Shown here in pieces: positions 1-53,428 of a DNA stretch of 64,000 bases (positions within the stretch are counted from its first letter, which is position 1; every line of letters starts with the position of its first letter). The notes under the pieces are model-generated. The model saw only the letters and a program-made list of their open reading frames with translations. It was not told the origin of the DNA and did not search any database. The DNA is taken from the sequence record PX393109.1; one strand, written 5' to 3'. This DNA is from a phage. Made by a program: the position numbers and the translations under genes.

Positions 1-101
1 AACAACCATGGTGGAACCTAGACCAGGAACACTGTACGGTTAGCATAGCCTATAGGGTATTTCGGTGCCCTATGTGAAATGTTAACGTTAGGAGTAATCA
101 A

Positions 102-290
102 ATGCATACGTTAGATATATCTGACGAGGCTAAACGAATTTTAGAAGAGTTAGACGACTGGAGTGGTCCTATCTCTAAGCTGATCGCCAAGCTGAAAGAT
201 GTAGAGAACATTGAAGGTGATATCGATGTTACCTTCGATGCTGGTTATAATAATGTATCTATAATTGCAGGAGTTGATGATGAACAGTAA
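102..290 (+). CDS. hypothetical small protein
   Basis: 62-aa ORF, ATG preceded by AGGAG RBS. Confidence 0.45.
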   Translation: MHTLDISDEAKRILEELDDWSGPISKLIAKLKDVENIEGDIDVTFDAGYNNVSIIAGVDDEQ

Positions 291-834
291 ACTTAGGTTA
301 GCTCCTCATCTGTACAATAGAATGCTGAAAGAGTTGATGGATGCCGTAATGACTTATGGCCAGACTCAGCAGCTCCGTACACATCTGGCTAAGGTAGTGG
401 ATCAATACGTAGAGCCGGACCATCCACATACCAGACCCGCTCCTCAGTTTTATCAGGCAACATGGTCTTGGCGTAGCTGGGAAGTAAATGCCGTAATTAC
501 TGCAGAAGATTACAAACTACTAGAATCTCGTCCGGATGTTAAGGTAGTCATGAGAGACTTCCGTGGCTATGGTAACGATGAGGAGTTCTCCTTCTCAGAT
601 TTATCGTTTACTCCCATCGATGCTGGTATGGCATCTAACTTCGCGGTAATGAGTTGCTCAGTAAACGAAGAGGTACTATTCGATCTCTTATCCGCAGTTA
701 AGTTACAGATTCAGAGAGATGAGGTAATTGAAGAGATCGGATGCAACCGCTGCGGTGGTGCTGGTCAAGCAGTGATAGACCATGGCGAGCTCGGTATTGA
801 GCATATGGTATGTCCTCATTGCAATAAGAAATAA
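277..834 (+). CDS. hypothetical protein with C-terminal CxxC...CxxC zinc ribbon
   Basis: ORF track 265..834 (TTG); ATG at 277 after GCAGGAG; C-terminal CNRCGG...CPHCNKK. Confidence 0.5.
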   Translation: MMNSKLRLAPHLYNRMLKELMDAVMTYGQTQQLRTHLAKVVDQYVEPDHPHTRPAPQFYQATWSWRSWEVNAVITAEDYKLLESRPDVKVVMRDFRGYGNDEEFSFSDLSFTPIDAGMASNFAVMSCSVNEEVLFDLLSAVKLQIQRDEVIEEIGCNRCGGAGQAVIDHGELGIEHMVCPHCNKK

Positions 835-844
835 GGAAGTATCT

Positions 845-1399
845 ATGAGTAGTAATCGTAATGTAGTGGAAGAGACTCTGGACTTAATCAACAATCTCTT
901 CCGCAGTAAATTAAGTGGTGATCTCAATGCTATGGAGTTCACCATGAGCCGTAAAGAAGTAGCAGACATCCTCAATCACGTGAAGATGTCTATCACGAAT
1001 AACTGCGTCGCTATTCCTGATGGTCTGCATCCTGATACTCGTGAGTTGGTTCTGGACTTCGCTGGGAAGATGGCTAAGAAGTTACATAAAGCCCAGGTTA
1101 AGTATGGATTCACCAACGGATGGCGTCATCCTAACTGGGATACGGCTAAGGGTAATGATCAGTTCGAAGACCCTACCCAGTGCATCATCGCATTTAGCCA
1201 CCATATCGATAAGGGTGATCCTGTCGACGTGGCTAACTACTGCGCATTCATGGATTGGCATGGATGGTCCGCTAAATATGTCCCTGCCCCACACACTGTC
1301 ACCATCGACAATAAGGGTATGGTAGGGTCCATTAAACCAGCAACCGAGCCTGGATATGGGACCGATTATGTTGGTAGCATAGGAGACATGCCTCAGTGA
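845..1399 (+). CDS. hypothetical protein
   Basis: ORF track 782..1399; in-frame ATG at 845 preceded by AAGGAAG RBS. Confidence 0.5.
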   Translation: MSSNRNVVEETLDLINNLFRSKLSGDLNAMEFTMSRKEVADILNHVKMSITNNCVAIPDGLHPDTRELVLDFAGKMAKKLHKAQVKYGFTNGWRHPNWDTAKGNDQFEDPTQCIIAFSHHIDKGDPVDVANYCAFMDWHGWSAKYVPAPHTVTIDNKGMVGSIKPATEPGYGTDYVGSIGDMPQ

Positions 1400-1623
1400 A
1401 TAAAATAATGATGATGGGTATACTCGAAAATATTGTAACCCTTATCTGCATGACTGTTCTAGTATTGGGCCTTTATTATATGGGAGCATCATGGTGGTCG
1501 GCTATACCTGGGCTATTGGTATTCAATCTTAGTTCTGTTAAGTATAAGGAAACTAAGTCTGTTGGTCACCCAGAGAATACCACACCAACTGGGGAGGTTG
1601 CTGCTCCTCCTAAGGACAGATAA
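1396..1623 (+). CDS. small hydrophobic membrane protein
   Basis: 75-aa ORF, hydrophobic core ILENIVTLICMTVLVLGLYYMGASWW; GTG start with AGGAGA 9 nt upstream. Confidence 0.4.
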   Translation: MNKIMMMGILENIVTLICMTVLVLGLYYMGASWWSAIPGLLVFNLSSVKYKETKSVGHPENTTPTGEVAAPPKDR

Positions 1624-1934
1624 TGGAACAGTTCCGCATTGAATTAAAGATATGGAGCGCAGATATCGGGGAACGCCCTCCGGAGGGGGACGTTAACTGG
1701 AGAACTGCCTACTGCATTTTAGGTCCTGTTAATGAAGAAGACTGGACTTTAGATAAAGATAAGGCTACTTTGCTTAGTTATGACCGTCTGGATGAGCTAA
1801 ATCTGTTCGGTTTAGCTGCAAGATGCCGTAATTCCCTACGTTTATCTAACTGGGAACTAGGCTCCGTGAACATAATTAAGCTGGTAGATCCTGAGCTTAT
1901 CCATATCAACATAACGATAGATAAAGAGTATTAA
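1623..1934 (+). CDS. hypothetical protein
   Basis: 103-aa ORF, start overlaps upstream stop (TAATGG). Confidence 0.5.
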   Translation: MEQFRIELKIWSADIGERPPEGDVNWRTAYCILGPVNEEDWTLDKDKATLLSYDRLDELNLFGLAARCRNSLRLSNWELGSVNIIKLVDPELIHINITIDKEY

Positions 1935-1944
1935 GGAGCTTAAA

Positions 1945-2178
1945 ATGGATAAAGAGTTAAATGGTGCAGAAGAAGATGTTCTGTACAAATTATTCTGGTT
2001 CGGACCAGCAGCAGACGGAGACCTACCATCTAAATCTGGAGCATCTGGCTTGGTAGATAAAGGATTAGCTGCCTGGTTTAAGGGTAATAATCTCTGCCCT
2101 AAGATTTATGATGACCGTAACATGTGTATGCTTACTTCCCTTGGGGTAGACTTAGCCAGAAATAAGTATACTAAATAA
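1945..2178 (+). CDS. hypothetical protein
   Basis: 77-aa ORF with AAGGAG RBS. Confidence 0.5.
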   Translation: MDKELNGAEEDVLYKLFWFGPAADGDLPSKSGASGLVDKGLAAWFKGNNLCPKIYDDRNMCMLTSLGVDLARNKYTK

Positions 2179-2180
2179 AA

Positions 2181-2216
2181 CCGCTCTTTTGTACGGTCAA
2201 AAGGCTGTTAAACTGT
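2181..2216 (+). promoter_or_regulatory. conserved intergenic motif copy 1 (putative phage promoter)
   Basis: CCGCTCTTTTGTACGGTCAAAAGGCTGTTAAACTGT. Confidence 0.5.
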
Positions 2217-2290
2217 AGAGGTTATTCCTATAGAGCATCTGATGGTGCTCTATGTGAATAGTCTTAGGAGATATTAGGAGATATTAAGAT

Positions 2291-2650
2291 ATGTTTGAGA
2301 AATTAAAATCTATATTTAAAACTGTTCCAGCAATTCCCTTACTGACTAAATCGGAAGAGCGACTAGCTTATGAGAATATGATCCGTACTGGGGACCCTAC
2401 CGAATTTATCAGAATGTTGGATAATGACGAAATCCGGATGATTCGTAAAGATACATGGACTTGGGTAAGCGCTAATGGTGTAATCCATGTCTATAACGAT
2501 ATTTACGGTCCGGAAGTTAAGCTGGGAGGAGTAAGTGCGTTAATTGACTGTAATGGTGATGCTTACGGTCTATCTTACGAAGATGGTAAGAGAGTATATA
2601 ACGCAATCTGGGACTCCTGCGACCGCTCCAGGAGGATGGCTCATGTTTAA
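2291..2650 (+). CDS. hypothetical protein
   Basis: 119-aa ORF downstream of motif copy at 2181-2216. Confidence 0.5.
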   Translation: MFEKLKSIFKTVPAIPLLTKSEERLAYENMIRTGDPTEFIRMLDNDEIRMIRKDTWTWVSANGVIHVYNDIYGPEVKLGGVSALIDCNGDAYGLSYEDGKRVYNAIWDSCDRSRRMAHV

Positions 2651-2813
2651 GTTACTTATTATAAGTAGTATTGTTGCTCGGGATGCTCCATCAGTTCACT
2701 CGGTAATTGCGGAATTTGAGACTAAAGATCAAGCAGATCGTGCCTACGACAAAATGGTGGAATCTGCCAACCCTCAGTCCTGGGTATCTAACAAAGTAGT
2801 GAAACTTTACTAA
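2644..2813 (+). CDS. hypothetical small protein
   Basis: ATG at 2644 after AGGAGG; ORF track lists a longer alternative-frame start at 2544. Confidence 0.35.
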
Positions 2814-2869
2814 TAGCTGAGTTCTATTAAGGCACCTAACGGCCTAATAGTTGCTCTTCCGTAAAACAG

Positions 2870-3270
2870 ATTCGATAGTCTGGGAAGAGCAGCTATATAC
2901 TCTCATTAAGTAATGCGTATACATAGGGCACGATTAAGTTACGTCTCCGGCTATGGTTGCATTACGAATAGTTAGGTAGTGTCCCTATTCAGATTGTCCG
3001 GAACTGGATAGAGGATGAAGGTATTGTCGAGACCTTAGTGGGGACTGATGCGAACTACACTAAGGTTTATACCCTCTCAACATTCTTAGGGGCATCTACG
3101 TAGTATACCTTGCGTCACGCGTAGGGTGAGCGAGTTAAAGCCCAAAGTGGCTTTAGGGAGCGAATCCCAGGGGGAGGCTCGGGTGGGCAAGGTCAGAGTC
3201 TCCGGAGGAGCTTAGTCTCGTGTACGCGGCGGCTCTGCCAGCCGCCGCTACACTCCAATTGGTTAAATTA
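2870..3270 (+). ncRNA. candidate large structured RNA element, copy A (paralogue of 56070-56490)
   Basis: ~500 bp with no ORF >=60 aa in any frame; GC-rich; perfect hairpins (GCGGCGGCT/AGCCGCCGC, AAAGCC/GGCTTT); shares blocks of sequence with the second element at equal spacing. Confidence 0.4.
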
Positions 3271-3342
3271 GATAAGGGGCCGGTAGTTCCTACGTCCATT
3301 AGTTTAGGAGTTATTATTTGATTATGTTGAGGAACACTATTA

Positions 3343-3576
3343 ATGATCGTAGTTACTGAAGAGTATATTACCTCCCAGTCTAAGGCTGGTGGGAAGGCTG
3401 TTGGAAGAGTAGCAATAGCTAAACTAACCAATATGGGTTATGTTCCTAAGGACACTCCTAAGCCACCAGCACCATGGATATGGGAAAAGGAGAATGGCAG
3501 GATTATGGCTATTACCCAGTATATGGGGCCATTCAGACTCAAGATCGAATACTTAGTAGATCTGGAAGATTCGTAG
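3343..3576 (+). CDS. hypothetical protein
   Basis: 77-aa ORF. Confidence 0.45.
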   Translation: MIVVTEEYITSQSKAGGKAVGRVAIAKLTNMGYVPKDTPKPPAPWIWEKENGRIMAITQYMGPFRLKIEYLVDLEDS

Positions 3577-3577
3577 G

Positions 3578-3616
3578 CCGCTCTTTTTAGGTGCTGAAAG
3601 GCTGTTAAGGTGTCAG
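3578..3616 (+). promoter_or_regulatory. conserved intergenic motif copy 2
   Basis: GCCGCTCTTTTTAGGTGCTGAAAGGCTGTTAAGGTGTCA. Confidence 0.45.
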
Positions 3617-3636
3617 AACTACTGTTAGGAGAAATT

Positions 3637-3831
3637 ATGACTACTGAAGAAAAGATGATCCATATGTACAATCAGGTTCATGGTCCTATCTCTGCTTCCT
3701 GTTACTGGGAGTATGATGAAGAGACTAACGAATTGATCTGCATGAAAGATGGCCATGAATGCTGGCGGACATCTAGAGAAGAGATTCTGTTTGACTATAT
3801 CACTAAGGATATGACAGATGCCACAGTTTAA
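3637..3831 (+). CDS. hypothetical protein
   Basis: ORF track 3610..3831; ATG at 3637 after TTAGGAGAAATT; follows motif copy 3578-3616. Confidence 0.45.
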   Translation: MTTEEKMIHMYNQVHGPISASCYWEYDEETNELICMKDGHECWRTSREEILFDYITKDMTDATV

Positions 3832-3953
3832 GTGCTCCTGGTGTAAACAACATAAGGATGAGACTCCTATCGATATGTCGGAGTATGGTCTCGAACCAGT
3901 ATGTCTTACCTGTATGCAGGTAATCGAAGAGCAGGCTATGGGAGGAGGCTCCG

Positions 3954-4175
3954 ATGATGACGAGGAGTAATCCCGTACAGATTAATGCTCTCTGTCTAGA
4001 TGGTGTCTGGATGGCGAGTTGGGAATATTACAAAGCTAAGGATGCTAAGAAAGAGGCTGAGTTTACTGGAGAGCCGAAAGTAATTAAGCGTAGTAAGGCT
4101 AACGAAGATTGCTACTGCGGATCTGGCAAGAAGGTAAAGAATTACCCATGTAAACAATACGTCCTGAAAAGATAA
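3954..4175 (+). CDS. small protein with SEC-C-like metal-binding motif
   Basis: CYCGSGKKVKNYPC resembles the SecA/YecA SEC-C motif (CxCGSGKKYKxCC); GGAGGAGG RBS. Confidence 0.5.
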   Translation: MMTRSNPVQINALCLDGVWMASWEYYKAKDAKKEAEFTGEPKVIKRSKANEDCYCGSGKKVKNYPCKQYVLKR

Positions 4176-4184
4176 GGAATAATT

Positions 4185-4439
4185 ATGTACTTTACTGATA
4201 ATATGATCGTAGGACTGATGATTGCTTATGTCATCGGTGGGATCATCGTTTATCCGATTGCTGCTTATGTTACTGGCAGATTCCGTATTAAGCATGGTGG
4301 CTACACAGTATTGGCTACGGTATTTTGGCCGTTAATCCCTTTCGTGATCGTGGCAGTTATCATAACTAAACTGGCCGAAATAGCTTGCACGAAAGGGTTC
4401 CACTACCTCCGCGATCTCGGTGAGAAACATGCCAATTAA
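4185..4439 (+). CDS. small membrane protein (two predicted TM helices)
   Basis: hydrophobic stretches IVGLMIAYVIGGIIVYPIAAYV and VLATVFWPLIPFVIVAVIITKL; AAGGAATAATT RBS. Confidence 0.5.
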   Translation: MYFTDNMIVGLMIAYVIGGIIVYPIAAYVTGRFRIKHGGYTVLATVFWPLIPFVIVAVIITKLAEIACTKGFHYLRDLGEKHAN

Positions 4440-4998
4440 TTTCAGTATGCAGAGTCTTGAAGACTTTGTACCAGAGCATGGTAAGAGCGTAGTAGTCTTC
4501 TACCACGAGCGATTCTATTCCCGAGTAGAAATGCTACAGATGCAAGTAGAGTTCCACTACCAGATGATAGATGGCGATGGCTGCCCAGTTCCTCAGTGGG
4601 CATGCTATGATAATCGTGACGACATACCGTTCGATAAGCCATTCATCTGGAAAGATAAGCAGGTTAAGTTCCTTACTCTGGACGACTGTATGGAAATACA
4701 TAATCGTCATCCCAAGCACCACTATCGTTACTGGTGGGTTAAGGACTGGTTCCTAACTGGCGGAGGAAATAGCCAGTTAAATAGGGAACAGCTGGCGGAG
4801 ATGTCGTTAGGGATTATGAGTGCCGAACAGTTTAGTGCTGAGCTGGATAAGGGATGTGCTGATCTGGAAGCCAAGCGTATCTTACGTGAATTAACTCGTG
4901 AATCCCGTACTGGATATTGTGAGAAGCATGGCACTCGTCAGCTGGGTAAGGACCTATGTGATGTGTGCCGTATTGAACGTGCATTTATGGAGGGATGA
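4429..4998 (+). CDS. hypothetical protein
   Basis: ORF track 4420..4998 (GTG); first ATG at 4429. Confidence 0.45.
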   Translation: MPINFSMQSLEDFVPEHGKSVVVFYHERFYSRVEMLQMQVEFHYQMIDGDGCPVPQWACYDNRDDIPFDKPFIWKDKQVKFLTLDDCMEIHNRHPKHHYRYWWVKDWFLTGGGNSQLNREQLAEMSLGIMSAEQFSAELDKGCADLEAKRILRELTRESRTGYCEKHGTRQLGKDLCDVCRIERAFMEG

Positions 4999-5654
4999 TG
5001 CGGATCTGGACCGACAAGAACTCTATTCTGGAGTTTATCGGAGAGTACCGATTCCTATCTAACTTTTATCCTGTTCCTATTGAGGATAAGAATCCTTACG
5101 GGAACGAGACTCTTCCCTCCCTTACTTACCCTAGTGTGGAGCATGCCTATCAAGCATCTAAGTCTCCATCACTAGCCCATCGTCTTATCATAGCTAGACT
5201 TCATACTCCTGGTGAGGCCAAGAGATATGGACGTAAGCTGCCCATTACTGAATCGTGGAAGGAACAGAGAGTAGATGTGATGGAACACCTACTCCGGATT
5301 AAATTCGCGAAAGGTGGGGAGCTAGCTCAAAAATTGACCGATACTTGGCCTAAGGAGCTGGTCGAAGGAAATACCCACGGAGATTCCTTCTGGGGTATGA
5401 CTCGTGAGGAGTACAAGTCCGTCCTCACTGGTATTAATATGCTCGGACGATTACTGATGAAACTTCGGGAGGAGTTAGTTATGGAACAAATGACCAAGGA
5501 GACAGGATCGTTTGCGGAGTGGCATAAACTGCTGCACCAATACGCTCAGTCTCGTGGCGGTAGCGCTGCTGATGCGGAAGCCTGGCGGGATGATTACGAT
5601 GAAGGTAAGACCCCTAAGCAGGCCTACGACGATGAGTGGGGCGAAGAAGACTAA
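4995..5654 (+). CDS. NADAR / YbiA-like N-glycosidase domain protein (candidate ADP-ribosylation reversal enzyme)
   Basis: FLSNFYP...PSVEHAYQASK...ESWKEQRVDVMEHLLRIKF...LVEGNTHGDSFWG aligns by eye with E. coli YbiA motifs (FSNFAAWP...SEHYFQAQK...LVEHTENDAYWGDG); acidic C-terminal tail. Confidence 0.75.
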   Translation: MMRIWTDKNSILEFIGEYRFLSNFYPVPIEDKNPYGNETLPSLTYPSVEHAYQASKSPSLAHRLIIARLHTPGEAKRYGRKLPITESWKEQRVDVMEHLLRIKFAKGGELAQKLTDTWPKELVEGNTHGDSFWGMTREEYKSVLTGINMLGRLLMKLREELVMEQMTKETGSFAEWHKLLHQYAQSRGGSAADAEAWRDDYDEGKTPKQAYDDEWGEED

Positions 5655-5662
5655 CCTATCTT

Positions 5663-5690
5663 AGCGCTCTTTAGGGAGCGCTATTTTTAT
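5663..5690 (+). terminator. rho-independent terminator after NADAR gene
   Basis: AGCGCTC/GAGCGCT 7-bp stem, 6-nt loop, followed by ATTTTTATTT. Confidence 0.55.
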
Positions 5691-5708
5691 TTAATGTTGG
5701 GAGTAATT

Positions 5709-5948
5709 ATGGAACAACCTATCCAAGCAGTAACTAATGCGGTTGGGAGCATGCAGATCGTGGGTTATGATACCTATGAGCAAGTAGCTCAATCAGTTAA
5801 ACTCGATCCTCGCAAGAAGCGTCGTGGTCATCGTCGAGCAGCTAAGAGTCTGCTTAGTAATGGTGGGGTCTTCAATAACTACTCTGCACCAGGAACTACA
5901 TTCTGGTGGGTCGCACAATGGCATCTTAAGAAGGCACGTAATGGCTGA
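5709..5948 (+). CDS. hypothetical protein
   Basis: ORF track 5694..5948; ATG at 5709 preceded by GGGAG RBS. Confidence 0.45.
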   Translation: MEQPIQAVTNAVGSMQIVGYDTYEQVAQSVKLDPRKKRRGHRRAAKSLLSNGGVFNNYSAPGTTFWWVAQWHLKKARNG

Positions 5949-6294
5949 AGATACTGGGATTCATGACGGACGCTGGGAAGATCGATATAACTCAGTACGA
6001 CAGGAATTAGACACTACTAAGGCTAATCTGAGTAAGGCTAGAGTAGAGAATGCTGAAAACCGAGCTATGCATCATCGTATTATTCAGATGGCTATTGATG
6101 ATGGCTGGACTGGTGATCATAATAGTAATGTTGAGGATGCAGTAAAATTCCTATCGGGTAGAGAGCGTAAAGTAACTACCCCTAAAATTCATTACACAGA
6201 TCATATCACAATAGGTAAGGCATCTCCAGTATATGATGCCGTTGAAGTAGATACATTATTAACCAGTCTAGGGTATACTGTGGATAAGGATTAA
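5941..6294 (+). CDS. hypothetical protein
   Basis: ATG at 5941 overlapping upstream stop (ATGGCTGA); ORF track lists 5824..6294. Confidence 0.45.
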   Translation: MAEDTGIHDGRWEDRYNSVRQELDTTKANLSKARVENAENRAMHHRIIQMAIDDGWTGDHNSNVEDAVKFLSGRERKVTTPKIHYTDHITIGKASPVYDAVEVDTLLTSLGYTVDKD

Positions 6295-6296
6295 TT

Positions 6297-6334
6297 CCGC
6301 CGTTTCTTACCCTCGAAAGGCTGTTAAATTGTTG
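6297..6334 (+). promoter_or_regulatory. conserved intergenic motif copy 3
   Basis: CCGCCGTTTCTTACCCTCGAAAGGCTGTTAAATTGTTG. Confidence 0.45.
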
Positions 6335-6358
6335 CACCTCAACTGATAAGGATAACCG

Positions 6359-7072
6359 ATGTCTACTAAGATGATGCCACACCATCTGGCTCCGAATAAA
6401 CTGTTTAACCGATTCCTGTCATATCACGACTCCTACCACTGCGCAATTGACATCGAGACCGAGTATCTCGATTTTAAAGAGCCTGGGGTAGTTCTATCTG
6501 TAGGTATGGTGACGGTTGGTCCTGATCACTACTCCCACGTCTACTTCACTATTGATCGAGAAGAGTCGCTGGCTCTGGGTATGAAGTCTGACCCTAACGT
6601 AGTTGAATGGCTCAACACTCTCCCGAAACCCGTCCGTGATGCTGCATATGCTAATCCAGTATCTGTTGACGAAGCTCTGGATATCATCGAAGAGTACGTA
6701 GCTAAGGTACTACAGGATCCTGGTTGCCAGATGTTGAACTTCATCGGTAACGCACCAGAGTTCGACCAGGGATTCCTGGATTGGTACTTTAAGGCTAAAG
6801 GACGTAAGACCCCGTTCCTACACTGGATGAATCGAGATTACCGCACTCTGGCTAGTCTGCAGCTGATCTCATTCGATGATCGTCGCATGATTAAAGAAGA
6901 ACTGAGTAGCCAGCACGAGTCTATGTCTGATCACCATGCATTGTTCGATGCGATGCTGGAAGCTAAGACTTGGGTTCGCACCATCAATCGTGTAAAAGAG
7001 TTACAGGATCTGGAGCACGAGGTGAATACCATGATTGCTATGCAGGGTAACTCTGTGGAAGATGGAGAGTAA
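6359..7072 (+). CDS. DEDDh-type 3'-5' exonuclease (DnaQ/RNase T-like)
   Basis: Exo I-like CAIDIETEY, later NAPEFDQGFL, C-terminal HHALFDAMLEA (H-x4-D motif III). Confidence 0.6.
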   Translation: MSTKMMPHHLAPNKLFNRFLSYHDSYHCAIDIETEYLDFKEPGVVLSVGMVTVGPDHYSHVYFTIDREESLALGMKSDPNVVEWLNTLPKPVRDAAYANPVSVDEALDIIEEYVAKVLQDPGCQMLNFIGNAPEFDQGFLDWYFKAKGRKTPFLHWMNRDYRTLASLQLISFDDRRMIKEELSSQHESMSDHHALFDAMLEAKTWVRTINRVKELQDLEHEVNTMIAMQGNSVEDGE

Positions 7073-7385
7073 GCTTTGTCGGGTGGTTAATATACGTACC
7101 AATCCTAACTACGATTTATATGTTGGGAGAGGTACTATATTCGGGAATAAGTGGAGCCATAAAGATTTACCTAACGCTATTAACGTAGGTTCCCGAACAT
7201 TAGCCATCGCGAAATACAGACTATGGTTCCACCAGCAAGTAAAAGATGGCCACATAAGCATCTCCTACTTACGGACTCTTAAGGGTAAGACTTTAGGGTG
7301 CTCCTGCTTACCGTTACCATGTCATGCTCAAGTTATAGCTGACTTCGTTAATTCATTACCTGACGAAGATTCCGCTCTTTCGTAG
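7062..7385 (+). CDS. DUF4326-like protein (CxC...PCH motif)
   Basis: YVGRG...GNKW...LGCSCLPLPCHAQVIADF resembles the DUF4326 signature; family assignment from memory. Confidence 0.4.
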   Translation: MESKLCRVVNIRTNPNYDLYVGRGTIFGNKWSHKDLPNAINVGSRTLAIAKYRLWFHQQVKDGHISISYLRTLKGKTLGCSCLPLPCHAQVIADFVNSLPDEDSALS

Positions 7386-7410
7386 CCTCCAAAGGCTGTT
7401 AAACTGTTGG
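7372..7410 (+). promoter_or_regulatory. conserved intergenic motif copy 4
   Basis: CCGCTCTTTCGTAGCCTCCAAAGGCTGTTAAACTGTTGG; 22 nt before ATG 7424. Confidence 0.5.
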
Positions 7411-7423
7411 AAAGGAAATCTCT

Positions 7424-7648
7424 ATGCAATCACGTCGTATTGGTTTGTTAAGCGGTATCGGTATGGTTCTGGCTGGATTAGGTCATATGTGGCCCACCCC
7501 AGCAGTGTCTGCTAAAGGCTATGACGGATTCCGTCGCGCCTGTACCAAGGTAAGCTGCCCTAAGACTACTACAGCATCTGCATTAAAGCGTGCGGCTAAG
7601 AAGGCTAAAGGCCGTAAGGTTAATAAGCAACGTCACAAGGGTAAATAA
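7424..7648 (+). CDS. small basic protein with N-terminal hydrophobic segment
   Basis: 74-aa ORF, GLLSGIGMVLAGLG then lysine-rich tail. Confidence 0.45.
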   Translation: MQSRRIGLLSGIGMVLAGLGHMWPTPAVSAKGYDGFRRACTKVSCPKTTTASALKRAAKKAKGRKVNKQRHKGK

Positions 7649-8028
7649 TGTCTCATATGACCCGAGAAGAAATCGTATTGATGGTGGCTAAGGTGTGTCA
7701 CGAAGCTAATCGTGCATACTGCCATTCTATCGGAGACTTCACCCAATTAAGCTGGGAAGCAACATCCGATGAAATAAAACAGTCGGCTATTGATGGAGCG
7801 TATAACTGCTTACACAATAACCGTATCAGCCCAGAAGAGTCCCATGAATTCTGGGTTAAAACTAAAAAGGAGCAGGGCTGGAAGTATGGAGAAATCAAAG
7901 ATCTCGCAGCTAAGACGCACCCGTGTATGGTTCCATATTCACGGTTGCCGGAAGAGCATCGAGTCAAAGATCACCTCTTCACCAGCATCTGCGCAGCATT
8001 CATTAAACAGTACAAAAGGGCATCATGA
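7648..8028 (+). CDS. RyR-domain protein
   Basis: [43 protein letters not shown] matches the RyR domain core (W..GW.YG......HP.LVPY..L). Confidence 0.55.
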
Positions 8029-8495
8029 TGACCGTAGTTCAAGTAAAGAAAACTATTAACTGGGACGACTCTCTGGAGTTACCGAAATACGCTAAAGCTG
8101 GTGATGCTGGTCTTGATCTTCGTGCGATGATTAAGACTGACGAAATCGATAAAATCGCTGTAAATCCTGGCGAAACTATCCTGGTCCCTACCGGTCTAGC
8201 GATCAACATCGGCGATCCGAACATCGCTTCTGTGATTCTTCCCCGCAGCGGCCTCGGCCATAAAAATGGCATCGTACTGGGTAACTTGGTTGGTCTTATC
8301 GACTCCGGCTATCAAGGAGAACTGATGGTGTCTGTGTGGAACCGTAGTAACGAATCTTTCGTTATTAACCACGGCGACCGTATCGCTCAAATGGTGTTTC
8401 TTCCCGTTATCCATCCAGAGCTCCAGCTTGTGGATAAATTCTCTGATGTTTCTGAACGTGGCGACGGTGGGTTTGGCCATTCCGGGATTAAGTAA
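8025..8495 (+). CDS. dut: dUTP diphosphatase
   Basis: [55 protein letters not shown]: all five dUTPase motifs in order. Confidence 0.85.
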
Positions 8496-8526
8496 TCCTG
8501 GGGTAGTTAGACTACGGTAATTACTA

Positions 8527-8550
8527 TTGACCTCTTTGCGGAGAGGTCAA
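8527..8550 (+). promoter_or_regulatory. perfect 9-bp inverted repeat (operator- or terminator-like hairpin)
   Basis: TTGACCTCT-TTGCGG-AGAGGTCAA between dut and the next gene; no T-run. Confidence 0.35.
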
Positions 8551-8577
8551 TGTTATTCTACCATAGAACCGAGGAAT

Positions 8578-8781
8578 ATGATGGATATTGAGCAACTAAC
8601 TAAGGATCTTAATCGTAACCAGATTACGGTTATTCGTTCGGAGCACTTAGCTCCCAAGACTATGATCGTGTCTGATGATATCTGGGGCACATTCAAGAAT
8701 AATAATAATAATAATAATAATAATGCTACTGTAGAAGCTACAGATGAAGAATCTGTTAAGAACATGCTGGAGCATCCGTAA
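8578..8781 (+). CDS. small protein with poly-Asn tract
   Basis: ORF track 8527..8781 (TTG start lies inside the hairpin); ATG at 8578 after GAGGAAT; 9 consecutive Asn encoded by (AAT)9. Confidence 0.45.
   Translation: MMDIEQLTKDLNRNQITVIRSEHLAPKTMIVSDDIWGTFKNNNNNNNNNATVEATDEESVKNMLEHP
8698..8724 (+). repeat. (AAT)9 trinucleotide microsatellite inside a CDS
   Basis: 27 nt of perfect AAT repeats, in frame. Confidence 0.9.
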
Positions 8782-9404
8782 TGATCCTTGGTAAATCTTA
8801 TATTGAGCAGGCAATTACTCAAGGATTATGGACCTATCACAGTTATCTGGACAATCAGGAACCACGAATCGGACAGAATAGTGTAGATGTACGCTTAGCT
8901 CCGTTCTTCCTGGTTCCTCAAAAGATGCCTGATGGCCATGTAGTAGATCCCTATAAACCATGTACTCTTCCGGAGTATCGCGAGGTAGAGGCACTATACT
9001 ACGATCTTAAACCTGGGGAGTTCATCTTAGGCTCAGCATCTGAACGTATCGACTGTACTACCATGTTGCCTGAGAAGTGGTTCGAGCATTATGACCCACG
9101 ATACCGTAACAGCACTGTAGACCGTGGTGTGGCATTCTGTCAGCATTACGACGGTCGCAGCACTATGGGTCGTCTGGGAATACTGAGCCATGTCAGTGCA
9201 GGTTTCGGGGACTTTGGATTCAAGGGAGCATTTACTCTAGAGATTGTTAACCTAAGCCCTAACACTATCCGACTGCGTTCTAACATGCGCATCGGTCAGA
9301 TTTACTTTACTGAGGTTGCTGGTGGTGGCTACGACCTTTACAAAGGTTACGACCAGACTGACTTTAAACCAGTCGCACCAATCATAGGTCGCGATCGTTT
9401 CTAA
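8781..9404 (+). CDS. dCTP deaminase-like protein (dUTPase superfamily)
   Basis: VDVRLAPFF, GSASERIDCT, RSTMGRLGI, GFGDFGFKGAFTLEIVN, MRIGQIYF resemble Dcd motifs; adjacent to dut. Confidence 0.55.
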   Translation: MILGKSYIEQAITQGLWTYHSYLDNQEPRIGQNSVDVRLAPFFLVPQKMPDGHVVDPYKPCTLPEYREVEALYYDLKPGEFILGSASERIDCTTMLPEKWFEHYDPRYRNSTVDRGVAFCQHYDGRSTMGRLGILSHVSAGFGDFGFKGAFTLEIVNLSPNTIRLRSNMRIGQIYFTEVAGGGYDLYKGYDQTDFKPVAPIIGRDRF

Positions 9405-9416
9405 TTAGGAGAAATT

Positions 9417-9794
9417 ATGTACAACGCATTCAACGGACCTCATCCAGAGGCTCTGCCGGTAATCGACGAAGCTAATCTGGTAAAGCGCTTCCGCGAGAGC
9501 TATGCTAGCCAGGTTGATTTAAAACAAATCATAGTTCTGGCATGTAATCAGCGTAAAGCTGCTATCCAGGATAAAATCGACCAGTTAAATAAGGCCAAAG
9601 TTCGTTTAATCGACAGTCTGGCTGGTGAAGGTACTAAGTTGGGTGCGGCTGATATTAGCGACCAGGTCAGAGGCATGGTCGCAGATACCAATAATCTCCA
9701 ATCGTTAATCAAAGAGATTGACGACTCGGTGAACATGGTATTCTCAGCTCTGGGTGGGCTACTGGAAGAGCCCACCACAGAGAAATCTCTGTAA
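9417..9794 (+). CDS. hypothetical protein
   Basis: 125-aa ORF, GGAGAAATT RBS. Confidence 0.5.
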   Translation: MYNAFNGPHPEALPVIDEANLVKRFRESYASQVDLKQIIVLACNQRKAAIQDKIDQLNKAKVRLIDSLAGEGTKLGAADISDQVRGMVADTNNLQSLIKEIDDSVNMVFSALGGLLEEPTTEKSL

Positions 9795-9825
9795 TCCGTC
9801 ACGGATGATTAATTTGGAATGAACT

Positions 9826-10188
9826 ATGACTTCTGCCGATTGCGTAGCTATGGTCGTCTACTATGAGGCCAGGGGAGAGTCGGAACGTGGGCAGTTAGCT
9901 GTAGCCCACGTGGTACTCAACCGAGCGAAGAAATACGGTATAAGCCCATGTAAGGTAGTTAAAAACAGGAATACCTTTCCGTGGTACCGTCACATCTCTT
10001 ACCAGAATATGAAAGATCCTAAATCTAAGGCATCTGCTATTCATATTGCGGCAAGAGTTAAATACAGTGAAGATCCCACATTCGGGGCTACTCACTTTCA
10101 TAATGTAAAGGTTAGGCCTAACTGGAAGGGCTATAGAATGACAGCCAGAATAGGCGACCACAAGTTCTATAAGAAGGTAAAGAAATGA
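9826..10188 (+). CDS. SleB/CwlJ-like cell-wall hydrolase domain protein
   Basis: YYEARGESERGQLAVAHVVLNR is the hallmark N-terminal motif of the Hydrolase_2 (SleB) family. Confidence 0.55.
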   Translation: MTSADCVAMVVYYEARGESERGQLAVAHVVLNRAKKYGISPCKVVKNRNTFPWYRHISYQNMKDPKSKASAIHIAARVKYSEDPTFGATHFHNVKVRPNWKGYRMTARIGDHKFYKKVKK

Positions 10189-10739
10189 CTTTGAGTAATA
10201 TGGATATAGACAACCTAATCGGTATGTTGGGAGGTACAGCAGTACTCGTTCTAACAGTCCGTCCTATCGACCAGGCTGAGAGCTATGATATAGTAGTCCG
10301 AGAGTCTAGCTTTGAATTCGAGCAAGCTCTTCGTCATGCTATGCACGATCTGACTATTACCAATAACGGTATTAAGCACCGTCTACTTAAAGTGTCGATA
10401 GGTATTAAATCGTCCGATGTATTCGCTAATCCTGATATCGTAAAGACCTGGGAAATCTGCGATAATCCACACACTCCTAAGATGAACGAAGCTATCGAGC
10501 GCGACCAGCAGTATCAAGAAGTCGTTCATCAGGCGGTAGAGCTAGTATTTTTACTTAGCAACTGCCAGACTATTTATTCAGCGTATGAAGGCAAGGTCGA
10601 TATGACTCAAGAGTCGGTTCGGGAGGCCGTTCGTGTATCTCTTTTCAATATCTTATCTGGTAAGTCAGAAACCAAGATGGATGCTGAAGTAGAGAAGGTA
10701 ATTAAACCATTCCGGGAATTATTTGTACGGAGTATCTGA
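10185..10739 (+). CDS. hypothetical protein
   Basis: 184-aa ORF overlapping upstream stop. Confidence 0.5.
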   Translation: MTLSNMDIDNLIGMLGGTAVLVLTVRPIDQAESYDIVVRESSFEFEQALRHAMHDLTITNNGIKHRLLKVSIGIKSSDVFANPDIVKTWEICDNPHTPKMNEAIERDQQYQEVVHQAVELVFLLSNCQTIYSAYEGKVDMTQESVREAVRVSLFNILSGKSETKMDAEVEKVIKPFRELFVRSI

Positions 10740-10981
10740 TGGACTTGATGAAATTAAACATCAAACTAGAGGGAGTGTGTAAGGCAGGGATAGTGAAGGT
10801 ATGCTATAACTGTAAAGAGCACCCCACTCTACGTCTTGACGAGAATAACCACTTACATCTGGAGTGTCCTAACTGTAAATGGGACGACCATGAAGTGGTT
10901 ACTGATTTAGATATGGAAGATGAAGCAGTTGCTGATCGTGAGCTGGGGCTTATGGTCGAGATGTGGAATCGTCATAACTAA
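10739..10981 (+). CDS. small zinc-ribbon protein
   Basis: CYNCKEH...CPNCKW. Confidence 0.5.
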   Translation: MDLMKLNIKLEGVCKAGIVKVCYNCKEHPTLRLDENNHLHLECPNCKWDDHEVVTDLDMEDEAVADRELGLMVEMWNRHN

Positions 10982-10993
10982 ATTAATCTACAC

Positions 10994-11035
10994 AAAAATG
11001 GGACTCACTCTATCACGAGTGAGTCCCATTTATTT
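10994..11035. terminator. bidirectional rho-independent terminator at early/late boundary
   Basis: perfect 15-bp stem AAATGGGACTCACTC/GAGTGAGTCCCATTT, 6-nt loop, A-run on left and T-rich on right; sits between convergent gene blocks. Confidence 0.8.
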
Positions 11036-11366
11036 AGTGCTTAAAGATGCCGATGATGGCGTCGTTAAACAATCCTACCAGTACACTAATAATTGCTAAC
11101 GCACCACTCCAGAATTTAATCTTGTCATTTACTTCCTTAATCTCCTTCCTTAGATCATCCTGCTCATCTTCAAGGTCAGAAATCTTCTTAGACATGAAAT
11201 TCTGTGCAACGACTAGCTCACGGATATCCGCTAATATCTCCGTCTGCTTACGAGAAGACTCCATAAGTTGATCAAGGATTACTCCCTGAAACTTCTGGTT
11301 AGATTCAAGTCTCGCTAGCCTATCGAGTTGGTGTCCACCGAACTCAGACTCTTCCCTCTCGCGCAT
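11034..11366 (-). CDS. coiled-coil protein with C-terminal TM helix (lysis-associated?)
   Basis: 110-aa ORF; C-terminal FWSGALAIISVLVGLF; position in lysis cassette. Confidence 0.35.
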   Translation of the reverse strand: MREREESEFGGHQLDRLARLESNQKFQGVILDQLMESSRKQTEILADIRELVVAQNFMSKKISDLEDEQDDLRKEIKEVNDKIKFWSGALAIISVLVGLFNDAIIGIFKH

Positions 11367-12099: not shown

Positions 12100-12747
12100 T
12101 TAAAGAGTTAAAGTCTGATTTGCTCTGCGTAGTACAGGCAGTCGGTCAGGTACGGTCGCAGCAGACCCATTTATCTTCTGGGTTACTTTGGTGAATGCGT
12201 CCTGATCTGCTAATTGATTTAATTTATTTTTATCCCAGAACCACCCTGCAGTAAGCATGATCGTTTCGAAATCCGTCTCTACTAACTCTGGATCTTCTAC
12301 CAAACGGTCATCGCCAAAGATACTCAAAGAGGCCTCTCGATAGTTAGCTTTGCCAGTTAGATGCATAGCTCCACGGCCAATGTACTTATACCCATCTCCG
12401 CTAGCTGGAGTTCCGTTACCCATGCGATTAGCATACACCTGATTGGCTAACTTCTCAGGGTCGCGTATGTAAGCATTAGCATTAAGCTTACCAGGTTCAC
12501 CGCGAAGAGTAAATCTACTCGGCCACACAGCTACCAGACGAGACGCAGAGGTATAATACAGGGACTCCACAAACTTAGTGTAGTCCCGAGTTTCAAAGGC
12601 AGTCTGCGCCATAAAATAGCGCAGACGACGATTGGTATTGATACCGTAACGCTCGATAGTAGTATTAATGGCGGGTAGCAGCTTTTCCAGCACTTCCGTT
12701 GAAGTTGTCGGGAGGAACTTCTTCAGCTGGTCAAGTGTAACGCTCAT
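12100..12747 (-). CDS. endolysin, glycoside hydrolase family 19
   Basis: FMAQTAFET, YIGRGAMHLTGKANY, AGWFW: GH19 (class I chitinase-like) catalytic motifs. Confidence 0.85.
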   Translation of the reverse strand: MSVTLDQLKKFLPTTSTEVLEKLLPAINTTIERYGINTNRRLRYFMAQTAFETRDYTKFVESLYYTSASRLVAVWPSRFTLRGEPGKLNANAYIRDPEKLANQVYANRMGNGTPASGDGYKYIGRGAMHLTGKANYREASLSIFGDDRLVEDPELVETDFETIMLTAGWFWDKNKLNQLADQDAFTKVTQKINGSAATVPDRLPVLRRANQTLTL

Positions 12748-52592: not shown

Positions 52593-52934
52593 ATGAAAAC
52601 TGCTGATATCATTACGTTCCTGGGTAACCTATCTTCCCTATATAATAAGGTAGGAGACAATCGTCGTGCTGGGTCATTCGCGAGAGCATCCCAGTCTATT
52701 CAACTTCACGTTAAGATCCCCGAAGTTAAGGATTTGTCGCAACTCGGCAAGTTACCTAACGTCGGCGGGTCGACCATCAACGAATTAATCGAGATGGATA
52801 CTAAAGGGACTACCGATCGTATGGAGTCCCTGAAGAAACAGCTCGAAGAAGATGGTCCGCAGGATACTTCTGCTAAACTGGCTAACGCATTGGCTTTAGT
52901 TAAGGCTAAGCAGGCCAAGATAGAGAAGAAGTAA
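52593..52934 (+). CDS. hypothetical protein
   Basis: ORF track 52578..52934; ATG at 52593 with GGAGG RBS 8 nt upstream; motif copy just upstream. Confidence 0.5.
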   Translation: MKTADIITFLGNLSSLYNKVGDNRRAGSFARASQSIQLHVKIPEVKDLSQLGKLPNVGGSTINELIEMDTKGTTDRMESLKKQLEEDGPQDTSAKLANALALVKAKQAKIEKK

Positions 52935-53428
52935 TGTTTATGTTCGTCACTGGTCATAGGCCAGATAAACTGGGTGGCTGGGATATCTTTAGCCATGATC
53001 AGCTTACCCAGTTTGCCGAACATCATATCCAGAGGTTGACCGAAGAAAATAAGGTCGACTGCTGGTTCGTGGGTATGGCTTTAGGATGGGACATGGCATG
53101 TGCTCAAGCATGTGCTAACCTCGGAATACCATATTTCGCAGCAGTCCCTATGATTGACCAGCCCAAGATGTGGCGATCTGCAGATGTAGAAAAATGGACT
53201 GAGCTCTGCAGGAGAAGTCGTCGCACAATTATAGTTTCCGAGCCTGGGTATGATTCTTTCAAGATGATGGTGCGTAACCGTTACATGGTTAACCGTAGTC
53301 AGAAGGGATTAGCCTTATGGGATGGCAGCAAGGGTGGTACAGGTAACTGTGTAACCCATGCTAAATCTCTGGGTAAGGAAGTAATTAATGTATGGGAAGA
53401 TTATGTCAAAATCACAGGATCTCCTTAA
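52934..53428 (+). CDS. SLOG-superfamily protein, YpsA/DUF1273-like
   Basis: VTGHRPDKLGGWDIF / FVGMALGWDMACAQAC / AVPMIDQPKMW / LALWDGSKGGTGN parallel the B. subtilis YpsA blocks (recalled from memory). Confidence 0.5.
   Translation: MFMFVTGHRPDKLGGWDIFSHDQLTQFAEHHIQRLTEENKVDCWFVGMALGWDMACAQACANLGIPYFAAVPMIDQPKMWRSADVEKWTELCRRSRRTIIVSEPGYDSFKMMVRNRYMVNRSQKGLALWDGSKGGTGNCVTHAKSLGKEVINVWEDYVKITGSP

Follow-up and report, generated by a model that had tools for sequence, protein, structure and literature searches.

What does a ryanodine receptor (RyR) domain do in a bacteriophage? The question is raised by an open reading frame (ORF) of 126 residues in a 64,000-nucleotide stretch of phage DNA (record PX393109.1; the whole stretch is hereafter called the window). 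The ORF runs from ATG to TGA at positions 7648..8028 of the + strand. The initial annotation, which was made from the letters alone, placed a RyR domain in the C-terminal half of the encoded protein, described such domains as sporadic in phages and of no established function, and read the position of the gene upstream of dut as a hint of a link to nucleotide metabolism or signaling. The statement on function is now outdated. In two independent 2026 preprints, phage RyR-domain proteins are described as anti-Thoeris factors that either bind or cut the cyclic ADP-ribose (cADPR) signal, the family being made up of glycosidases or sponges that act on glycocyclic ADP-ribose (gcADPR). The family function was thus already explained in 2026, and the gene in the window raises no new question about it. 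Here, we describe the homology that appears to place the window protein in this family and weigh how it may act.

The first preprint, by Lopez Rivera et al. (Kranzusch/Sorek/Hatfull), gave the name RyDEP to mycobacteriophage DyoEdafos gp78. RyDEP is an inverting glycosidase that acts on 2'cADPR and 3'cADPR and opens the ribose-ribose bond to yield linear ADP-ribose (ADPR), which is recycled to nicotinamide adenine dinucleotide (NAD+) by the adjoining NARP1 enzymes. The 1.65 Å structure revealed a homodimer formed via helices alpha1 and alpha4 and homology to RyR Repeat12; H75 and D117 constitute the catalytic dyad, W78 stacks on the adenine, and H100 holds the phosphates. Eight other viral homologs with the Pfam RyR domain (PF02026) were also studied by these authors; binding of the signals was seen for six and cleavage for none. 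Two of these homologs, H4 from a Ruegeria phage and H7 from a Pectobacterium phage, act as sponges of nanomolar affinity and overcome type I Thoeris. The second preprint, on Migulavirinae/N4-like phages (10.64898/2026.06.04.730250, 5 June 2026), described RyR Tad, the C-terminal RyR-like domain of CB1 gp68. RyR Tad is a dimeric sponge that binds 3'cADPR with a dissociation constant (Kd) of 43 nM and also binds 2'cADPR and, below 1 uM, canonical cADPR. Mutants of H129, W132, K147, H154, K170, and D171 bound 3'cADPR ~100-fold more weakly.

Homology to the RyDEP/RyR Tad family

The profile check that had been named alongside the initial annotation was run. PF02026 matched residues 63-108 of the window protein with 49.3 bits (E 5.8e-13), well above the curated gathering cutoff of 27.4, and a score above this threshold is how the family was collected in the RyDEP preprint. 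No other Pfam domain was found in the 126-residue protein, which consists of a single RyR-type unit. The span of the Pfam match agrees with a domain in the C-terminal half, and the peptide quoted in the initial annotation corresponds to residues 66-108, but the homology is wider. Because three PHROG families of unknown function (5154, 11782, and 18865) match residues 9-123, the conserved unit appears to be the whole protein, beyond the C-terminal half.

A phmmer search of PDB sequences returned RyR Repeat12 constructs and the animal RyR1-3 with E-values of 2.4e-26 to ~1e-21, the per-domain values for animal RyR1-3 being ~1e-6 to 1e-11. Also returned were a 'putative ryanodine receptor' from Bacteroides thetaiotaomicron (E ~2e-12) and a 139-residue 'Ryr domain-containing protein' (35tm, E 6.6e-12). 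The latter entry is DyoEdafos RyDEP, the two sequences being identical over all 138 residues. A direct BLASTP comparison of the window protein with DyoEdafos RyDEP gave 32% identity over 82 residues.

The window protein was then aligned with RyDEP and the H1-H8 sequences provided in the supplement of the RyDEP preprint. Identity was highest with H6 (Salmonella, 50%) and H8 (Erwinia, 47%), followed by H7 (42%), H5 (38%), H1 (37%), H4 (36%), H3 (35%), H2 (26%), and DyoEdafos RyDEP (26%). The homology to H6, H7, and H8 spans residues 9-118, and a tblastn search against Pectobacterium phage CB1 gave 44.5% identity with an E-value of 2e-26. Judged by sequence, the window protein is a stand-alone member of the RyDEP/RyR Tad family and carries all of the family's defining features that can be checked in silico. 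The label 'ryanodine receptor', in the sense of a Ca2+ channel, was rejected for a protein of 126 residues with one RyR unit and no channel or transmembrane regions.

Ligand residues and predicted fold

The residues that matter for the two structurally characterized members are retained in the window protein. H66, W69, H91, and D108 fall in invariant alignment columns and correspond to H75, W78, H100, and D117 of DyoEdafos RyDEP, positions that mutagenesis has tied to catalysis or binding. With a constant offset of 63, H66, W69, K84, H91, K107, and D108 correspond to H129, W132, K147, H154, K170, and D171 of CB1 gp68; all six RyR Tad binding residues are therefore kept, with identical spacing and no indels. 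In the helical layout described below, H66 and W69 belong to alpha3, K84 and H91 to the loop joining alpha3 and alpha4, and K107-D108 to alpha4. Across 80 aligned database homologs, H66, W69, H91, K107, and D108 do not vary, and K84 is conserved in at least 90% of the sequences. Three residues near the N terminus, A14, H18, and N21, are likewise invariant.

The same 80-homolog alignment was used for an AlphaFold2 model, which had a predicted local distance difference test (pLDDT) score of 96.2. DSSP assigned four main helices to the model (residues 6-27, 41-56, 62-75, and 102-117), the last of which is preceded by a short loop that contains beta structure. When the model was compared with the PDB by Foldseek, all 50 matches listed were RyR repeat domains or the B. 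thetaiotaomicron protein. The protein is thus predicted to be an all-alpha four-helix domain resembling RyR Repeat12. By analogy with the structures of DyoEdafos RyDEP and CB1 RyR Tad, we infer that it would form a homodimer via alpha1 and alpha4.

Reading frame and purifying selection

The region containing the gene shares 93.8% identity with Escherichia phage vB_EcoM_IME392 and 90.9% with Escherichia phage EP_H11. Compared with EP_H11, the RyR gene has 18 nucleotide differences in 17 codons, with 17 synonymous and 0 non-synonymous changes, and the proteins are 100% identical. The comparisons with IME392 and with four metagenomic contigs showed 4-11 synonymous codon differences and 1 non-synonymous difference. 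The RyR gene is under purifying selection.

The substitution pattern also bears on the frame and its start. Because codons 2, 3, and 6 of the 7648 frame show only synonymous variation among relatives, the start at 7648 is favored over the M12 start annotated in EP_H11. A Shine-Dalgarno-like AAGGG, read directly from the sequence, is located 6 nucleotides upstream of the 7648 start. The pattern of substitutions fits the 7648 frame, and the two ORFs that overlap it, 7698-7967 (-) and 7790-8059 (+), were accordingly dismissed as shadows.

There is virtually no chance that the ORF is spurious or decaying and that its RyR-like motif lacks a function. Such a view could draw on the annotation of the closest relatives, as the gene is unannotated in IME392 (7349-7729) and is called a 'hypothetical protein' in EP_H11 (9034-9381, with a start that is probably 11 codons too late). 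However, IME392 is sparsely annotated, with 85 features for 116 kb. Moreover, all of the differences from EP_H11 are in synonymous codon changes, similar ratios are seen in five other relatives, the 599 homologs in the protein database, described below, have invariant pocket residues, and the fold of the window protein is confidently predicted. This explanation is effectively refuted by the substitution pattern.

Binding or cleavage of the signal

With moderate confidence, we propose that the window protein is a homodimeric gcADPR sponge with anti-Thoeris activity. Upon infection of a Thoeris-carrying E. coli, the host ThsB, a TIR protein, would convert NAD+ to 3'cADPR or 2'cADPR. The phage RyR protein, probably a back-to-back alpha1/alpha4 homodimer, would capture this signal in a pocket between alpha2 and alpha3, where W69 would stack on the adenine, H91 and K84 would hold the phosphates, and H66 and K107/D108 would contact the terminal ribose. 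With the signal sequestered, the Thoeris effector would stay inactive and the infection would proceed. Thoeris does occur in E. coli: type VI systems, the signal of which is 2'cADPR, are present in strains S1 and ACN001. The ligand identity, nanomolar binding, dimerization, and anti-Thoeris activity proposed here are carried over from the literature on homologs; for the window protein itself, we infer binding rather than cleavage and Thoeris as the target in E. coli.

A sponge is favored because one of the nine characterized members cleaves the signal and six bind it. It is also favored because a neighbor-joining tree puts the window protein in one large clade with H4 and H7, which are proven sponges, and with H6 and H8, leaving DyoEdafos outside; the tree, built on a short domain and with no support values, is indicative only. 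Lastly, a sponge is favored because the NARP1 partner genes of the glycosidase are absent here. A tblastn search with the NARP1 proteins (Adps/Namat) gp80 and gp82 of mycobacteriophage Baudelaire gave no match with an E-value under 0.59, either in the window or in the full genome of EP_H11. The Baudelaire locus itself served as a positive control and has gp81 between a phosphoribosyl pyrophosphate (PRPP)-transferase-like gene and a nicotinate-ribosyltransferase-like gene, which is the NARP1 layout. We also compiled 80 related IMG/VR viral loci with a RyR gene (1.19 Mb) and searched their ORFs by single-sequence phmmer, with which very divergent homologs could be missed; gp80 and gp82 found NARP1 in 0/80. 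Base rate, relatedness, and context favor a sponge, and none of them is decisive.

Several points weigh against the sponge proposal. The anti-Thoeris reading builds on homologs, none of which is from an E. coli phage, and both source papers on the family function are preprints. The lack of support values in the tree tempers the argument from relatedness, and the dimer is a projection onto a monomer model. The glycosidase dyad H75/D117 is conserved here as H66/D108, and cleavage stays compatible with the sequence. In addition, two of the eight homologs of Lopez Rivera et al. bound neither signal, so that family membership is no guarantee of binding. The H3 fragment cloned in that preprint, according to the supplement sequence, lacks the H/W motif, and its absence suggests that H3 was one of the two non-binding homologs.

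It is unlikely that the window protein is a glycosidase-type RyDEP, in which H66 would act as the general base and D108 as the general acid and the signal would be destroyed rather than held. The exact alignment of H66/D108 with the DyoEdafos dyad and of W69/H91 with W78/H100 speaks for it, and genes related to ADP-ribose, encoding NADAR and DUF4326 proteins, are close by and could handle the ADPR that is released. However, the same dyad occurs in all eight non-cleaving homologs and hence does not discriminate. With only 26% identity to DyoEdafos RyDEP, the window protein lies outside the DyoEdafos clade and differs at clade-specific positions, having H18/N21 versus Y/A, K84 versus R, and HPC versus HPD, and NARP1 was not found in the window, EP_H11, or the 80 related loci. 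The prospect that the protein binds an adenine nucleotide of another kind, such as ATP/ADP, NAD+, ADPR, canonical cADPR (Thoeris VII/VIII), or His-ADPR, or that it regulates the co-transcribed dut and dCTP-deaminase-like genes, is distinctly poor. The homologous Repeat12 domain of RyR3 binds ATP analogues and ADP in the literature, RyR Tad does bind canonical cADPR, the two non-binding homologs had affinity for neither gcADPR, and the RyR gene overlaps the start of dut. Nevertheless, the gcADPR-contacting residues of both crystal structures are all retained, the linkage to dut is specific to this lineage (see below), and an action on deoxynucleotide metabolism has not been demonstrated for any member of the family.

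A slim chance attaches to an ADP-ribose signal disposal route that operates independently of NARP1. Here, the RyR protein would open or hand over cADPR-type signals, which the DUF4326 and NADAR proteins would dismantle; or else it would be tuned to canonical cADPR (type VII/VIII) or His-ADPR. The genes might be co-expressed in one unit at ~5694-8500, which would combine the RyR gene with those for the DEDDh exonuclease, DUF4326, and dUTPase beside NADAR. This reading is weakened because the linkage to genes related to ADP-ribose is not conserved.

Comparison with known systems

The sponge activity proposed here is the one demonstrated for CB1 gp68 (Pectobacterium phage vB_PatP_CB1, A0A2P0PB48), which is the homolog H7. 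Its RyR domain is 42-44% identical to the window protein and has the same four-helix layout, and both proteins are phage-encoded in an accessory region. CB1 gp68 is 183 residues long and carries at its N terminus an additional, domain-swapped beta domain, which is not needed for activity, whereas the window protein comprises only the RyR domain. The settings differ as well, in that CB1 gp68 is encoded beside the primase in an anti-signaling hotspot of N4-like phages, whereas the window gene is in a dut operon of an E. coli phage of ~111-116 kb. DyoEdafos gp78 (A0A5J6TI87, 35tm) shares with the window protein the PF02026 domain, the H/W/H/D pocket, and the stand-alone form (138 versus 126 residues). 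However, it is a glycosidase within a NARP1 NAD+-salvage operon, whereas the window protein is 26% identical and has no NARP1. The closest tested sequences are H6 (A0A0C5PQF8, Salmonella) and H8 (A0A0A0YVI6, Erwinia), which are C-terminal RyR domains of Ackermannviridae/Erwinia phages. They share the motifs HEANRxYC, SHExW, HPCMV, and KD with the window protein, but are fused to N-terminal regions of ~170-180 residues that the window protein does not have.

The best structural matches outside of phages are the animal RyR1-3 Repeat12 domains (PDB 6uhb, 9l90, and the 6uhi chimera), in which the adenine-ligand residues are conserved. The animal Repeat12 is a tandem repeat pair within a Ca2+ channel of ~5000 residues, whereas the phage protein has just one such unit and presumably restores the twofold module by dimerizing. 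The B. thetaiotaomicron protein (3nrt, 6uag) is a prokaryotic single RyR repeat that is 40-41% identical over ~60 residues by Foldseek, but it is cellular, has ~100 residues, and lacks the full N-terminal helix pair of the window protein. Tad1, Tad2, and Sequestin likewise sequester gcADPR; they belong to unrelated folds and families, and the likeness is one of analogy and not homology.

Genomic context

The coordinates of the RyR gene and the other features are compiled in Table 1. As the initial annotation had noted, the gene is directly upstream of dut and a dCTP-deaminase-like gene is nearby. The overlap of the RyR stop with the dut start also occurs in three metagenomic contigs of the lineage (L003-L005). 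On the other side, the RyR start overlaps the stop of a 74-residue ORF, to which the RyR gene is translationally coupled. This ORF lies ahead of the RyR gene in all four of the lineage's metagenomic contigs that include upstream sequence (L004-L006 among them). It matched no Pfam family and a PHROG family only weakly, and the 80 other RyR loci contained no homolog of it. Co-expression of the RyR gene and dut is likely from their overlap; a functional link between them is not supported.

Table 1. Features of the RyR locus and of the rest of the window
Feature	Position	Strand	Evidence
Gene for stand-alone RyR (Repeat12-like) protein, RyDEP/RyR Tad family by sequence	7648..8028	+	ORF, PF02026, homology, AlphaFold2 model, substitution pattern
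Core RyR motif (residues 63-108), predicted ligand pocket	7834..7971	+	Pfam match span
Predicted pocket codons H66, W69, K84, H91, K107-D108	7843-7845, 7852-7854, 7897-7899, 7918-7920, 7966-7971	+	
N-terminal helices alpha1 (residues 6-27) and alpha2 (residues 41-56), including clade-invariant H18 and N21	7663..7815	+	DSSP on the AlphaFold2 model
Helix alpha4 (residues 102-117), with alpha1 the predicted dimer interface	7951-7998	+	
dut (dUTPase), ATG overlapping the RyR stop (ATGA)	8025..8495	+	PF00692, E 1.9e-35
dCTP-deaminase-like gene	8781..9404	+	PF22769, E 9.5e-24
74-residue ORF with hydrophobic N terminus and very basic Lys/Arg-rich tail, TAA stop overlapping the RyR ATG (TAATG)	7424..7648	+	
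NADAR-domain protein, C-terminal extension matching phrog_519	4995-5654	+	PF08719, E 7.9e-27
DEDDh 3'-5' exonuclease, Rv2179c-like	6359-7072	+	PF16473, E 9.8e-19; weak PADLOC DEDDh, 'Effector exonuclease'
DUF4326 protein	7062-7385	+	PF14216, E 2.5e-17
SleB-type cell-wall hydrolase in accessory block	9826-10188	+	PF07486, E 2.5e-20
Lysis-cassette gene, endolysin or lysis protein in relatives	12100-12747	-	
YpsA-type SLOG protein	52934-53428	+	PF06908, 29.5 bits versus cutoff of 27.7
tRNA-Arg (TCT)	55541-55617	+	
tRNA-Met (CAT)	55763-55838	+	
Block of small ORFs including the RyR gene	~1-11,000	+	
Lysis and structural module	11,034-52,396	-	
Second block with two tRNAs, a helicase, and RusA	after the - strand module	+	

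The significance of the dut adjacency was addressed with the 80 IMG/VR loci. Within 10 kb of the RyR gene, dut was present in 3/80, DUF4326 in 1/80, and the exonuclease in 1/80, while NADAR, DCD, and SLOG were each present in 0/80. The neighborhoods of four distant homologs on long contigs and of four annotated phages were unrelated. They included an amidase; a Gp3-like protein with Sequestin and AcrVA2-like genes nearby; lysis genes; a tRNA array beside the N4-type virion RNA polymerase; and T4 gp31/rIII. Given these low counts and varying contexts, gene linkage was rejected as functional evidence. Since dut is linked in 3/80 loci only, its adjacency is uninformative on function and reflects the mosaic accessory region of this lineage, not a coupling to deoxynucleotide metabolism. 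The proposed nucleotide link holds for signaling, as shown for the family by the 2026 preprints, which also bears out the choice of hosts with nucleotide-signaling defense systems in the initial annotation; a role in deoxynucleotide metabolism is not supported. The neighborhood of dut and the dCTP-deaminase-like gene, which had been offered as the clue, is not what supports the signaling link.

The window also encodes three proteins from families tied to NAD+/ADP-ribose conflicts, namely the NADAR, DUF4326, and SLOG proteins. According to the predictions of Iyer et al. 2022 (PMC9503650), DUF4326 is a rhodanese-phosphatase-like enzyme with ADP-ribose (ADPr) phosphates as substrates, and its fusion to SLOG, Macro, or NADAR domains is frequent. 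With these three and the RyR protein, the phage carries an ADPr-directed toolkit, although their linkage to RyR genes is not conserved elsewhere. The DEDDh exonuclease gene runs 11 nucleotides into the start of the DUF4326 gene. The Tad1, Tad2, Sequestin, and Acb families were not found among the 40 ORFs of the two + strand blocks by Pfam or among six ORFs by PADLOC, and PADLOC gave no match for the RyR protein. A RyR homolog (P0051) from another locus (L008 244-9228, JGI contig Ga0679433_0000269) is accompanied by AcrVA2-like, YqaJ exonuclease, Band_7, and Sequestin (PF21825) genes. To judge from its gene content, that block looks like an anti-defense island with two different anti-Thoeris sponges.

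With regard to the overall layout, it is reasonable to regard the block of small ORFs, which diverges from the - strand lysis and structural module, as the 'early region', as had been suggested, judging from the arrangement of the blocks alone. A scan of positions 4000-11200 for promoters and terminators gave numbers that were not above the shuffled expectation. Two hairpins, one at 5662-5683 and the other at 8525-8552, are no more than a loose hint of a transcription unit and were not relied on. The second hairpin, terminator-like with 12 pairs and a weak T tail, lies between dut and the dCTP-deaminase-like gene (8495-8781). It is followed by a small ORF with a run of eight asparagine codons (…FKNNNNNNNNATVE…), and at the equivalent place in the contig L003, a 60-residue gene has been called. 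The dCTP-deaminase-like gene is the most diverged of the block, with 83.6% identity versus 95-96% for the RyR gene and dut. After this gene, EP_H11 has an extra 651-bp gene for the hypothetical protein WBU87720.1 (57401-58051; L002 10739-11389). It is absent from the window (~9404-9417), which points to an insertion or deletion within the accessory block.

Distribution and annotation

The sporadic occurrence of the domain in phages, as originally described, is borne out by numbers. A tblastn search found a homolog in 298/50,697 phage records, of which 259 cover at least 80% of the query, and the many host genera include those of Salmonella, Pseudomonas, Aeromonas, Arthrobacter, Erwinia, and other phages. 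In the protein database, there are 599 homologs with E <= 1e-5. Most are stand-alone proteins of 111-136 residues and a few are fused to other domains. The stand-alone form is thus the common one, and the N-terminal fusions of H6-H8 are variants. Existing labels of homologs are diverse and include 'ryanodine receptor', 'Ca2+ release channel domain containing protein', 'Anti-CRISPR protein', and 'alanyl-tRNA synthetase'.

Taken together, the gene can now be annotated as encoding a RyDEP/RyR Tad-family anti-Thoeris protein. The window protein is a minimal, fusion-free representative of 126 residues from an E. coli phage, and it is well suited to the question of sponge versus glycosidase in a family where the dyad is common to both. 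From this annotation, resistance to Thoeris systems that signal through cADPR would be expected in this E. coli phage lineage, an expectation that bears on the prediction of host range and on the choice of therapeutic phages.

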